Assembly: GCA_963729715.1 (NCBI GenBank)
Contig: CAVSPA010000004.1
Location: 640,961 to 704,960 of the forward strand
Origin: an uncultured delta proteobacterium
GTDB lineage: Bacteria; Desulfobacterota; Syntrophia; Syntrophales; UBA2185
Length of the DNA: 64,000 nt
Reading direction: 5' to 3'
Positions 9,001 through 12,000 of this stretch are shown here, piece after piece; the stretch's first letter is position 1; every line of letters starts with the position of its first letter. A program made the position numbers.

Positions 9001-12000
9001 TTTAAGGTATCCGCTTGACAAGATAACCTGAATTTGTTTGACTGCAAGAAAGGTGATGGAGTTCACCCGCAAACAAACCGCCGACAAGGCTGATAACTCC
9101 TACCAGCGTTATTCTGGAGGAGTTTTTTTATGTCAGATACTGCCCGCACTCAGGATGTTTCACAGCGGTCACTGAAAGACGTTCTTGAGCTTTGCGACAG
9201 ATTTTCCATTCTTTCCCTGAACCGCCAGATAGAAGCCTGCGAGAAGTTACTTGTCCAGAACCCGTCCATTGATGTGGCGATCCTTGGTCAGTTTAAGGCA
9301 GGTAAAAGTTCTTTCATCAATAGTCTTATAGGCAAATCAATCCTTCCCGTTGGTGTCATACCGGTTACTACGGTGATTACCCGCCTTCAATATGGAGAAA
9401 AAGAACAAGTCTTTATAAGATATTTTGACGGCAGGACATCCGAGATTAGCATTAACGATATTGGAACTTTTACCTCTGAAGCCGAAAATCCATCAAATAA
9501 TAAAAACGTAGAGGTTGTAGATATTGAGCTTCCGTCTCTTAGGGCTTATGCCGGTCTCCGCTTGGTGGATACCCCCGGCTTGGGAAGTGTCTTCAAATAT
9601 CACGTCGAAACCTCTGAAAATTGGCTTCCCCATGTTGGCACTGCCATACTTGCCATAAGCTCCGATCGACCCCTTTCGGACAATGACGTGCAATTGATTC
9701 GGGAGCTGATGCAGCATACACCGAATATAGTCATACTCCTCACAAAAGCTGACCTTCTATCGCCGGAACAGCAGAACGAAGTCATAGAATTTTTTGAGCA
9801 AACGATTCAGCGAGAATTAAACCGGCGATTACCGATCTATGTATACTCGACCCGTGTGAAGACAGAGCAATGCAAGGATCGCCTAGAAGTAGGACTTCTC
9901 TACATGTTGTCCTTAAACCGTGATTTCGAGTTCAGGAAAATCCTCCAGTACAAGATGCAGTCCCTGATAAAAGACTGTCTCTGCTATCTCGATATTGCCC
10001 TGAAAACATCTTTGCAGGCTGAGTATGATCGAGATTTACTGCGTAAACAGATTTTCGATGAAAAGGTTAATTTTGATCTGATACGTGAGGAACTAACTAT
10101 TATTGCCCGCGAGAACCAGAGACAGACTCGAACCCTTATTATGAATTACCTTGATAATTTTCAGAGGCCTCTTAGGAAAACACTTTCTGAAGATTTGGAA
10201 AAAGAGCTTCCCACGTGGAAAGTTAATCTCTGGAAACTCACCCGGAGATATGAAGAGTGGCTTGCAGACCGCATGACAGAGGAGATGAAGTATATTTCCA
10301 AAACAGAGCATAGACATTTCTATGGCACTCTCAACAAGGCACACGCAAGTTTATCCAGATCAATCGAAGCCTTCCGAAATCTTCTGGGTAAAAATATCAA
10401 AAAAGTCCTTGGCGTGAGGCTCGCTGATGCGGACTGGAAAATCGAGGTATCGGAACCCGATCACCCCGACATCAAGACGATAAGATCATTTGACTTCCAT
10501 TTCGATCTTATCTGGTTTCTTATCCCCATGTTCATTTTCAGGGGTCTTTTTGAGAAGCATTTTATTAGCGAGATTCCCCGCGAAGTGGAGGCTAACCTCT
10601 CGCGCCATGCCGCCCAGTGGGAGGAACGCATCAACACGGCAATCGAAGAAATTCGAAAACAGGCGATTAATTACGTAAAAGAAGAACTCTCCACCATAGA
10701 CGCCTTGTTATGGAAGACGCATGGTCAAACGGATGAGATCAATGAGGCCATTAAGAAACTCCAAGAAGGATTGCAGGACTTAATTGCTTAACTTGACGCA
10801 ATAGATTGTTAGATATTCAGGTGGAGCTATGTCTTGCCGTAATTTTTGTGAATTCAATGAAAAGGGGAATATAAATGGAGCAGAAGAAAGGTTGTGTATT
10901 TTGTGACATCGTGGCGGGTAAGGCAGAAGCATATAGGATTTATGAAGATGAGCTTTCCATCTGCATACTGGATATCCACCCTTACACAAAGGGTCACTGC
11001 CTGGTAGTTCCAAAGCGGCATGTCCAGTGGTGGCATGAGCTCGCTGATGAAGAAAATGCAAGTCTTTTTAAGATGGCTAAGGTTGTTGCCAACCGGATGA
11101 TGAACAAATTTAATTCCGACTTCATTTTTCTCTGGGCAAGGGGCACAAGAATTCCGCATGCACATCTTTTCGTGGTGCCAAGTTACAACGGTGATGTACT
11201 CGACCAATTTTTCAACGCCCTTGAAAATTTCCAGGAATCAGCAGAGGAACTGACAAGGCTAAGAAAAGCTGAAGCGATGAAAGAAGCAGCGAGGCTTCTC
11301 AGCACTAAATAATTCAAACTGAATAAGTGTAGGTATGCCATAATTAAAGGTTTCTACTCGTAATCTTCATCATTCCAACCGTATTCATCTTGAGGACTTA
11401 GTGAAGCCAACAAAAAGGGTTGCCTTGCTAAGTATAAAAGAAAAACACACACTCCTTCCTGAAATATTCACGTGGTCAAATTCAAAAAGCCTACACTCTT
11501 TCCAACGATAATTGAGGTGCATTGCCAAAAAGAATCTGGTATATAAATTTAATATCGCAGATTCGCCGGGAATAATGGCGGTAGGTGGAGAATGCAAACC
11601 TTAACCCACCGTATAGGGAGAAACCGGTCCACTCAAACCAAATCCTGTCAAATTATCCAGTATGGATTTTCTTATTCAGAATTTATTATTGCTTGATCAT
11701 TCACTGGCGGCAGTGTTGGCTGGTATAGCCTTTGTGGGCATATTGGCATCTTTAAGTTCATGCACAATTGTGAGGCTTCCCGTAATATGGGGATATATTA
11801 CCGCAGCGGGGAAATCAAGAAGGAGAAGCGTTCTTCTGTCTCTTTCGTTTGCATGCGGCCTCATCGCCGTTTATACCCTTCTGGGATTTGCCCTCGGGTT
11901 TGTTTCCAATTTAACCGGTAAACTTCTCAAGATAAGTCAATATCTCTATTTTATTCTTGGCATTGTGTTGCTGATCTTGGGGATTATCTTTGCGGGTCTC

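Follow-up and report, generated by a model that had tools for sequence, protein, structure and literature searches.

A fluoride riboswitch paired with the gene of a bacterial dynamin-like GTPase in the order Syntrophales

In the window, the whole 64,000-nucleotide stretch of DNA analysed from an uncultured member of the family UBA2185 (order Syntrophales), a fluoride riboswitch stands directly upstream of a gene for a dynamin-like GTPase, and the same pairing recurs across the order. The arrangement is probably that of a fluoride-activated ON riboswitch controlling an effector dedicated to fluoride stress, a member of the class of bacterial dynamin-like proteins (BDLP). Direct support exists for the aptamer and its competing hairpin, for the family and fold of the protein, and for the conserved pairing and its gene neighbourhood. 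The survey's finding had located the unit at 9043-10791, which is correct, but the accompanying instruction to subtract 608000 from contig positions is wrong; the window starts at contig position 640961 and the offset is 640960. The unit and its flanks consist of the following features, in window positions:

9015-9043, + strand: candidate promoter, with a -35 element TTGACA (9015-9020), a 17-nt spacer, and an extended -10-like element TGT-TTGACT (9035-9043)
9043-9109, + strand: fluoride riboswitch aptamer, RF01734 (cmscan 55.0 bits, gathering score 34, model positions 1-64 of 64)
9095-9129, + strand: predicted expression platform hairpin AACUCCUaCCAG / CUGGAGGAGUU, 9095-9106 with 9114-9124, and U7 at 9123-9129 (centroid and MFE fold)
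9130-10791, + strand: open reading frame of the dynamin-like GTPase, 553 aa (P0001), with its ATG 20 nt past the aptamer match
10875-11312, + strand: HIT-family gene, 145 aa (Pfam HIT 58.9 bits), 83 nt past the GTPase stop codon

A search of the genome (3.76 Mb in 19 contigs, completeness 100, contamination 6.48) returned the aptamer, at contig coordinates C4:650003-650069, as its sole RF01734 match, in agreement with the survey's finding of a 55-bit score and a single fluoride riboswitch. P1 is formed by 9052-9055 and 9064-9067, and the second helix by 9080-9082 and 9088-9090. The 3' strand of the pseudoknot, ACUCC, occupies 9096-9100 and is partnered by the P1 loop GGAGU. Both helices and the conserved GAUGGAGUUC ... 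GGCUGAUAACUCCUAC are present in the cmscan alignment. The core nucleotides are all invariant among 22 aptamers of the family UBA2185, so these columns give no covariation evidence either way.

Upstream of the aptamer, CTTGACAA and TTTGTTxxACT vary little or not at all between the window and seven relatives, and the sequence farther upstream diverges. The candidate promoter formed by these elements is absent from the output of a consensus promoter scan. Transcription from it would start a few nucleotides before P1. Destruction of the promoter by an IS21 element has been considered and rejected, because neither the conserved -35 nor the -10-like element is disrupted.

The 5' arm of the platform hairpin is the pseudoknot strand of the aptamer (ACUCC), its 3' arm contains the Shine-Dalgarno sequence GGAGGAG (9116-9122), and the ATG directly follows the U7. 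An overlap of a terminator with the 3' end of the aptamer has been described for crcB RNAs in the accessible part of PMC2864571. The fold has an MFE of -26 kcal/mol; the folding energy alone is unremarkable, with a z of only -1.92 and equally good folds in 10 of 200 shuffles. The hairpin is also missing from the output of a simple terminator scan. A rule-based search identified a hairpin with a T-run and a Shine-Dalgarno-like 3' arm at 40 of 59 orthologous loci, with the pairing kept and the interiors of the stems differing. The remaining 19 loci, sorted by eye from their sequences, comprise eight hairpins with only the Shine-Dalgarno element, seven two-hairpin relays ending in such a terminator, and four unclear cases. 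The expression platforms are predicted to be of the ON type, competing with the 3' strand of the aptamer.

In the proposed mechanism, the aptamer 3' strand (AACUCCU...) would pair with CUGGAGGAGUU when fluoride is absent, forming a terminator-like hairpin followed by the U7. The same hairpin would bury the ribosome-binding site, leaving little full-length or translatable mRNA. Once fluoride is bound, the ACUCC strand would be locked in the pseudoknot and the hairpin blocked. Read-through and a free Shine-Dalgarno sequence would then lead to synthesis of the 553-aa GTPase, probably together with the downstream HIT protein. Judged from these sequence features, it is very likely that the aptamer binds fluoride and that fluoride induces the GTPase gene.

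The survey's description of a 553-aa dynamin-like GTPase beginning 20 nt after the aptamer has been borne out, as the protein encoded at 9130-10791 matches Dynamin_N (87.1 bits, cut-off 27, residues 49-205) and MMR_HSR1 (33.6 bits) in Pfam. Its remark that the NCBIfam DynA model scores far under its cut-off is equally accurate (41.2 bits vs 1600). The protein begins with N-terminal helices, followed by a GTPase domain at ~46-245 and a stalk of helices; a hydrophobic segment at ~455-475 is conserved. Across 32 aligned sequences there is no variation in the G1-G4 motifs, GQFKAGKSS (53-61, with the P-loop residue K59), T80/T81, DTPG (147-150), and TKxD (205-208). In the same alignment W462, L464, P466, M467, and F474 are invariant, in and next to the hydrophobic stretch FDFHFDLIWFLIPMFIF at ~453-470. 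The best sequence matches in the PDB are 5owv_C (5.7e-16), IniA (6j72, 4.7e-15), and BDLP (2j68, 4.8e-12).

The AF2 model of the GTPase (pLDDT 82.8, pTM 0.74) has helices at 2-42 and 245-552; the hydrophobic stretch falls between helices 399-427 and 467-528, in a loop modelled with low confidence. The top Foldseek matches, IniA 6j72, BDLP 2j69/2j68, and 5owv, align over ~600 columns with a probability of 1.00; their TM scores are only 0.32-0.38, as expected for hinged proteins. Further full-length matches are SynDLP, Drp1, and mitofusin. By sequence and predicted fold the protein belongs with IniA, BDLP, and the Campylobacter DLP, that is, in the BDLP class. It looks like an active GTPase of the type of IniA, Nostoc BDLP, and the Campylobacter DLP, and is predicted to bind membranes. 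Some source annotations call it 'EngB', but an identity as a ribosome-assembly GTPase has been rejected, as Dynamin_N outscores those models and the fold is that of BDLP.

The survey's finding had also claimed that the pairing is conserved in the family UBA2185, and this has been confirmed and extended to the whole order. Within the family, the count of genomes with RF01734 is unchanged (17 of 22). The pairing itself and the 74-100% protein identity of the orthologues stand; the finding gave 13 of 20 loci and a spacing of 20-60 nt. On recounting, the GTPase orthologue lies directly behind 14 of 22 family riboswitch loci (13 genomes in three genera) and starts 9-23 nt after the aptamer. The unit also occurs in the cultured relative Syntrophus buswellii DM-2, with an aptamer at 3772-3840 and the gene at 3932-5605 of locus L069. 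Across Syntrophales, in genome contigs, an aptamer is found upstream of the GTPase gene and on the same strand at 60/60 assessable loci with 56-89% protein identity. This survey was scored with our own aptamer model R1, which gave at least 38.9 bits at 59 of the loci and only 30.2 bits at L042. Of 15 divergent loci searched with Rfam's own model, 14 gave a match and only L042 did not. At L042 the ~30-bit R1 match lies 202 nt upstream and has no Rfam match, and this locus is counted as uncertain.

In a second survey, an evenly drawn sample of 121 Syntrophales genomes was searched with Rfam's own RF01734 model. Of 42 full-length orthologues, 41 have the aptamer upstream; the locus of the remaining one is interrupted by a contig end, which leaves 41/41 assessable loci. 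Conversely, a dynamin-like match follows 46 of the 89 aptamers in this sample. The genomes are related and therefore do not count as independent, and the species sets of the two surveys overlap. About half of the sampled genomes have neither the riboswitch nor the dynamin-like GTPase, so the protein is not indispensable. A paralogue at 42% identity has no aptamer. A second dynamin-like clade, at 28-30% identity, is likewise found behind fluoride riboswitches; among 11 metagenomic loci of this clade an aptamer lies upstream of three of five close relatives, which were searched within 1.5 kb, and of none of six distant ones. The association is thus partial in the second clade, and the pairing is specific to certain clades.

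No fluoride exporter is present in the GTPase operon. A six-frame search for CrcB (PF02537) gave no match at E<=1 in the genome (completeness 100), and 11 of 14 control genomes gave one. The absence of CrcB noted in the survey's finding is therefore upheld, but it is no peculiarity of this genome, since CrcB is present in six and absent from 115 of the 121 sampled Syntrophales genomes. The only CLC gene of the genome (C5:217286-218725), which had been put forward as possibly fluoride-specific, is nearer to CLC-F (142.7 bits) than to ClcA (74.6 bits) but lacks the three CLC-F signatures. These are given as GNNLI/GMGLI, GREGT/V, and GEVTP in the accessible part of PMC11139923. Compared with the CLC-F 6d0j, the genome's CLC has GTEKV for GMNLV, GKEGP for GREGV, and GIVTP for GEVTP. 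Thirty CLC homologues from the order were examined, and all of them lack the signatures. With all three motifs missing, the protein has been rejected as a bona fide CLC-F; fluoride transport by this CLC, which is nearest overall to CLC-F, is possible.

In the window, only the HIT gene follows the GTPase gene. The terminator scan lists no terminator-like site on the + strand between the two genes, and they are probably co-transcribed. Among 56 loci, the same-strand run after the GTPase gene holds an enolase in 15/56, a HIT gene in 15/56, and unk230 with GGGtGRT in 6/56. At 11 of the 56 the switch controls nothing but the GTPase gene, the next feature being an opposite-strand gene (seven loci) or another riboswitch (four loci). 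The usual order of the fluoride island begins with the GTPase gene, followed by enolase, HIT, and GGGtGRT genes, and then by another switch that precedes genes for Na+/H+ exchangers or MutS-like proteins. Phosphoglycerate mutase is also among the island genes that share the GTPase operon. The enolase, Na+/H+ exchanger, and MutS-domain neighbours were identified by Pfam. Enolase, Na+/H+ antiporter, and mutS-like genes are recognised classes of fluoride-response genes in the accessible parts of PMC11139923 and PMC2864571.

In one alternative to the effector reading, the cell compensates for poisoning by making more of a fluoride-inhibited GTPase, as with enolase or pyrophosphatase, and the job of the protein is unrelated to fluoride. 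Fluoride with Mg2+ (or Al3+ in an acid peat or fen) would form GDP-bound transition-state mimics that lock dynamin-type GTPases, and metal fluorides do trap GTPases. The GTPase, enolase, and phosphoglycerate mutase often share an operon, and enolase is the textbook case of boosting an inhibited enzyme in the accessible part of PMC11139923. On the other hand, the genome has no second strong Dynamin_N gene, so that the GTPase is no redundant duplicate of a housekeeping paralogue. Behind an ON switch with a terminator and Shine-Dalgarno occlusion, a housekeeping role would need leaky expression. Enolases linked to riboswitches are as a rule additional copies. We regard compensation as unlikely.

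It is more improbable that the switch serves the downstream enolase, HIT, and GGGtGRT genes and that the GTPase gene comes first in the operon by chance. The frequency of these genes in the same-strand run is in keeping with such an arrangement, but the GTPase is the constant element at all assessable loci of both surveys and the downstream genes vary. The GTPase gene is not a passenger because it is alone under the switch at the 11 loci mentioned above; in the window, only the HIT gene follows. It is extremely improbable that the aptamer is decayed or re-purposed and insensitive to fluoride, with the gene expressed for other reasons. The match covers the full model at 21 bits above the gathering score, and the core does not vary among the 22 family copies. 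The platform keeps its design throughout the order, and the unit co-occurs with other fluoride-riboswitch units.

The reading of the GTPase as a dedicated fluoride-stress effector is preferred, and the survey's proposal that a bacterial dynamin-like protein takes part in the fluoride response is supported by the pairing (60/60 and 41/41), the predicted ON-type platforms, and the fluoride-response neighbours. Within an order largely devoid of Fluc, the GTPase seems to be a standing component of the response to fluoride stress. Such an effector would work beside the other island genes, including the extra enolase, the phosphoglycerate mutase, and the Na+/H+ exchanger. We know of no direct attack of fluoride on membranes. 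In some bacteria, membrane-integrity genes rise under fluoride, according to the accessible part of PMC11139923. We tentatively suggest that the GTPase may maintain or repair the cytoplasmic membrane in fluoride-stressed cells. A bolder proposal, which we consider quite unlikely, is that the riboswitch-controlled GTPase is the main fluoride defence of Syntrophales and replaces export. It is prompted by the 115 of 121 genomes without Fluc and the 30 CLCs without CLC-F signatures. The protein would reshape or reseal the membrane against HF entry and proton leak, or shed it, and its GTPase cycle might be set through the GDP-metal-fluoride state, making fluoride both inducer and activator. If true, this would be the first defined physiological trigger for bacterial dynamins.

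To our knowledge, the purpose of bacterial dynamin-like proteins is an old open question, partly because the conditions that induce them are known for only a few. Across the Syntrophales, one BDLP clade is wired to a well-understood sensor whose ligand is known, and this names fluoride stress as the condition under which to seek a BDLP phenotype. The Syntrophales are syntrophic anaerobes with an elaborate multi-switch fluoride regulon and mostly without Fluc, raising the question of how fluoride leaves their cells. The matter bears on anaerobic digesters, peat, and organofluorine degradation.

The survey's finding had turned up no paper that joins the fluoride riboswitch to dynamin, and none was found here either in the literature searched, a scope outside which fall ~1.7 million PMC articles, most subscription journals, and the gene lists and supplements of Baker et al. 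2012. Judged by titles and abstracts, papers on fluoride riboswitches and GTPases were not on this topic, and those on riboswitches and bacterial dynamins did not deal with fluoride; none was found on a fluoride riboswitch in Syntrophus. Dynamin-like GTPases are not named as fluoride-riboswitch targets in the accessible parts of PMC11139923 and PMC2864571. The words 'dynamin', 'GTPase', 'Syntrophus', and 'aciditrophicus' do not occur in the supplements of Weinberg 2010; in supplement file 5, three matches to NC_007759 occur in parts 28 and 262, and the crcB alignment begins at about part 107.

The unit shares its aptamer family and ON logic with the classical RF01734 units, which head crcB/Fluc, eriC-F/CLC-F, Na+/H+ antiporter, enolase, pyrophosphatase, and mutS-like genes. 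Enolase, Na+/H+ exchanger, and MutS-domain genes are found nearby here too, under the same or a second switch. The difference is that the gene directly controlled here encodes a dynamin-like GTPase, in an operon without a fluoride exporter and a genome without CrcB.

Among the dynamin-like proteins, IniA of mycobacteria (with IniC; 6j72/6j73) is the best fold match (Foldseek E 1.9e-18, whole-protein alignment) and the second-best sequence match. Both are single-GTPase BDLPs of ~550-600 aa. IniA is stress-inducible, being induced by isoniazid and ethambutol, and remodels membranes. On the other hand, the identity in the structural alignment is only 14-17%, and regulation here would be by a riboswitch with fluoride as the inducer. 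The 64-kb window shows no partner resembling iniB or iniC. Fluoride regulation of Nostoc BDLP (2j68/2j69/2w6d), Campylobacter jejuni DLP1/DLP2 (5owv), or Bacillus subtilis DynA was not found in the searchable literature. A Dynamin_N GTPase with a helical neck and trunk is common to all of these proteins and to the GTPase described here, which is shorter, at 553 aa, and encoded by a single gene rather than by a pair or a fusion.

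An ORF of 553 aa (start ATG), which encodes a dynamin-like GTPase, begins 20 nt past the one fluoride riboswitch match (RF01734) in the entire source genome (G000; 3.76 Mb, 19 contigs, completeness 100, contamination 6.48), as the survey's finding had claimed. The match was obtained in an Rfam search of the window and covers the whole model. The start and end values given by the survey were right, but its offset of 608000 was wrong; the window is G000:C4:640961–704960, and the true offset is 640960. The locus contains the following features:

6518–8816, + strand: IS21-type element, with an istA-like ORF of 520 aa (rve and Mu-transposase C domains) and IstB of 280 aa (236 bits)
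9043–9109, + strand: fluoride riboswitch aptamer (RF01734), 55.0 bits against a gathering score of 34
9130–10791, + strand: dynamin-like GTPase gene (ORF, Dynamin_N)
10875–11312, + strand: HIT gene (HIT family)
13541–14791, − strand: Mutator-family transposase, 2.7 kb downstream

The IS21-type element stops within about 200 nt upstream of the putative riboswitch promoter. Mobile elements bracket the GTPase locus, and the conserved promoter elements are nevertheless intact. The sole other Rfam match in the window, a group II intron domain V/VI (RF00029, 51.1 bits), lies near the window end at 63260–63335 on the − strand.

RF01734 has been found in 17 of the 22 genomes of the family UBA2185, with 22 aptamers. 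At 14 of these 22 loci (13 genomes, 3 genera) an orthologue of 74–100% identity starts 9–23 nt past the aptamer, and the reported conservation of the riboswitch-GTPase pair in the family holds. Of the other eight, five have been labelled by blastp and carry a Na+/H+ exchanger (L003), a HEAT-repeat gene (L016, L018) or phosphoglycerate mutase (L017, L023), and three (L013, L015, L021) received no label from blastp.

A wider scan of one genome per GTDB species yielded 74 loci at 36–89% identity; almost all carry the label Syntrophales, Syntrophaceae, Smithella, Syntrophus or Syntrophorhabdus. Sixty loci are assessable, since their gene is complete and 200 nt or more of sequence precedes it; 14 were left out because the gene is partial or too near a contig end, and one of these (L047) still has the aptamer. 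With R1, a covariance model built from the 22 family aptamers, a same-strand aptamer has been detected at 60/60 assessable loci, ending 11–202 nt before the estimated gene start and scoring at least 38.9 bits at 59 of them and just 30.2 bits at the locus L042. Since R1 was trained on the family, Rfam's own model was applied to 15 loci, those that were most divergent or doubtful; 14 lie above the gathering score, and L042 has no RF01734 match above it. Across 121 genomes sampled evenly from the order Syntrophales, the protein is present in 48 (E ≤ 1e-30) and RF01734 in 61 (57 over the cut-off, with 89 aptamers over the cut-off). RF01734 lies directly upstream of 41 of the 42 full-length orthologues in this sample, the single exception (G117) being truncated where its 3617-nt contig ends, and a dynamin-like match follows 46 of the 89 aptamers. 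These counts are given as conservation and not as a statistical test, since the surveys overlap in species and related genomes are not independent. Several orthologues are apparently broken (L079 3950–~6500; G102:C248; G124:C82; G055:C4): the gene is divided between two ORFs, has another ORF inserted in it or contains a single in-frame TGA. They have kept the upstream aptamer.

The survey had left the expression platform unfolded. In both the MFE and the centroid fold, the aptamer 3' strand AACUCCUACCAG (9095–9106) can pair with CUGGAGGAGUU (9114–9124), and the hairpin is followed by a U7 run (9123–9129) and the ATG. The Shine-Dalgarno sequence GGAGGAG (9116–9122) is hidden inside the 3' arm of this hairpin. 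Because ACUCC (9096–9100) also serves as the pseudoknot-forming strand of the aptamer, ligand binding and hairpin formation would be mutually exclusive. The folding energy is unremarkable (z −1.92; 10 of 200 shuffles fold equally well) and a simple terminator scan does not list the riboswitch hairpin, so the case for the platform is made from its conservation. Of the orthologous loci, 59 have a strong aptamer, and at 40 of these a script detected the pseudoknot strand paired to a 3' arm with a Shine-Dalgarno-like word, followed by at least four T's. The stem interiors vary among loci (CCAG/CUGG, GCAG/CUGC, CUGAGG/CCCGGAG and others) while the pairing is retained. Manual reading of the remaining 19 gave eight Shine-Dalgarno-only hairpins without a T-run, seven two-hairpin relays ending in such a terminator, and four unclear cases. 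Upstream, CTTGACAA and TGTTTGACT are kept in the window and seven relatives, and the sequence farther upstream diverges; the two are the putative −35 and extended −10 elements, with a transcript start predicted just before P1. Fluoride very probably turns the GTPase gene on, and would do so through an ON switch.

By Pfam, the protein matches Dynamin_N with 87.1 bits (residues 49–205) and MMR_HSR1 with 33.6 bits, and it reaches 41.2 bits with the NCBIfam DynA model (cut-off 1600), the ribosome-GTPase models scoring lower still. It is the sole strong Dynamin_N gene of the genome. By sequence, the nearest relatives of solved structure are Campylobacter DLP2 (5owv_C, 5.7e-16), IniA (6j72, 4.7e-15) and Nostoc BDLP, a bacterial dynamin-like protein (2j68, 4.8e-12). 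An AlphaFold2 model from 32 sequences (pLDDT 82.8, pTM 0.74) predicts N-terminal helices, a GTPase domain and a long helical stalk. The top Foldseek matches are IniA, BDLP and the Campylobacter pair, followed by SynDLP, Drp1, mitofusins and LeoA; the alignments cover the whole protein with TM of only about 0.3–0.4, as expected for hinged molecules. In the 32-sequence alignment, the G1–G4 residues and a hydrophobic stretch (W462, L464, P466, M467, F474) are invariant, and in the model this stretch falls in a loop of low confidence between two helices of the stalk, the place where the membrane paddle is found in BDLPs.

The gene neighbourhood has been compared at 56 loci with the full gene and something downstream, using Pfam labels spread by blastp. 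Immediately downstream of the GTPase gene, 13 loci have an enolase, nine each have HIT or an ORF without a label, seven have a gene on the opposite strand, six have a 230-aa unannotated protein (always ahead of a GGGtGRT protein), four have another riboswitch, three have phosphoglycerate mutase, two each have a prenyltransferase-like protein or a STAND ATPase, and one has a Na+/H+ exchanger. Prenyltransferase-like and HEAT/zinc-ribbon genes recur as neighbours. The pair with GGGtGRT (PF14057, 622 bits) is seen in L067, L070, L072, L073 (5783–7485), L078, L096 and others. In the window, the HIT gene begins 83 nt past the GTPase gene, and the promoter/terminator scan lists no terminator-like site between them; HIT is part of the same-strand gene run that follows the GTPase gene at 15 of the 56 related loci. 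Some HIT/Fhit enzymes hydrolyse nucleoside phosphorofluoridates, an activity that would suit a fluoride operon. Past a 350-nt gap follow genes for a membrane protein of DsbD_TM/ArsG-like type and for a TPR protein; neither gene is seen again at the other loci.

A second same-strand aptamer lies downstream in 18 loci, three of these being tandem pairs, and precedes a Na+/H+ exchanger (8), a MutS-domain-V gene pair (3), a HEAT-repeat gene (2) or others. Tandem aptamers, whose two copies overlap or are separated by about 10 nt, occur at L038 7018–7132, L052 5809–5921, L087 2965–3072 and G094:C15:25666–25771; they lie past the GTPase-enolase unit, ahead of small unknown ORFs and of genes for STAND-type ATPases. 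One genome (L091) has two matches to the Na+ riboswitch nhaA-I (RF03057; 1186–1231 and 1732–1790, − strand), with about 500 nt between them, on the upstream side of its riboswitch-GTPase unit. The riboswitch-associated classes named in the parts of PMC11139923 and PMC2864571 drawn on here include enolase, Na+/H+ antiporters and mutS-like genes.

The absence of CrcB from the genome was confirmed, with no six-frame match to PF02537 at E ≤ 1 and 11 of 14 controls positive. According to the portion of PMC11139923 used here, a fluoride exporter is found in over 85% of a reference genome set; in the order sample, CrcB is present in just 6 of 121 genomes (6 of 98 high-quality ones) and fluoride riboswitches in 61. 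In G042, an aptamer (C121:11485–11547) lies directly before crcB (11580–11915). G000 holds one CLC gene, which the survey had considered perhaps fluoride-specific. It is closer to the solved CLC-F 6d0j (142.7 bits) than to ClcA (74.6 bits), but all three CLC-F signatures, listed in the same source excerpt as GNNLI/GMGLI, GREGT/V and GEVTP (PMC11139923), are missing: in the alignment with 6d0j, the G000 protein reads GTEKV where 6d0j has GMNLV, GKEGP for GREGV and GIVTP for GEVTP. No CLC-F signature occurs in 30 CLC homologues, comprising that of G000 and the best 29 of 56 matches listed in 55 order genomes. Many orthologues lack the gating glutamate, since their motif reads GQ[VI]GP. The clade nearest CLC-F (L109–L131) splits into two types, GKEGP, which keeps this glutamate, and GQ[VI]GP, which lacks it; CLC-F signatures are missing from both. 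When the two tables for the order sample are compared, none of the CLC places among the matches listed adjoins an RF01734 aptamer. As CrcB is rare and the CLCs examined lack the CLC-F signature, most of the order is, by sequence, without a recognisable fluoride exporter.

The function that we tentatively favour is that the GTPase would maintain or repair the membrane under fluoride stress, because of the BDLP fold with its hydrophobic segment, the precedent of the stress-induced IniA, and the behaviour of membrane-integrity genes. The last rise under fluoride in several bacteria, as described in part of PMC11139923. The main rival is compensation, in which the cell makes more of a GTPase trapped by metal fluorides; this would suit enolase as a neighbour but does not fit a gene that is present in one copy and controlled by a tight ON switch. 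It is unlikely that the GTPase gene simply rides along under the riboswitch, since it is the constant element of these loci and stands alone under the switch in 11 of 56. A decayed aptamer is likewise improbable as an explanation of the window locus.

The fluoride link is confined to certain clades and does not extend to bacterial dynamins as a whole, as the aptamer is patchy in a second clade and absent at distant relatives and at a paralogue. This second clade comprises a 581-aa dynamin-like protein in two order genomes, 28% identical to the window GTPase (Dynamin_N 93–99 bits); the two copies share 61% identity and have an RF01734 match upstream, and in one genome a prenyltransferase-like gene comes next. 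At the family locus L023, the riboswitch is followed by phosphoglycerate mutase and then a second-clade gene. A same-strand aptamer lies within 1.5 kb upstream in three of five close metagenome relatives of this clade (52–92%) and in none of six distant ones (33–45%), and the 42% paralogue in G032 has no upstream aptamer. A Bacteroidetes homologue (L094, 36%), its own 5' end off the contig, adjoins a fluoride-riboswitch cluster with HEAT and MutS-like genes.

No paper linking the fluoride riboswitch to a dynamin-like protein was found in a search outside which much of the literature lies; neither the riboswitch nor the protein class is new, and their connection appears undescribed. The proposed switch follows the same ON logic as the crcB RNAs, as these are presented in part of PMC2864571, and at the window locus it would act on both termination and translation.
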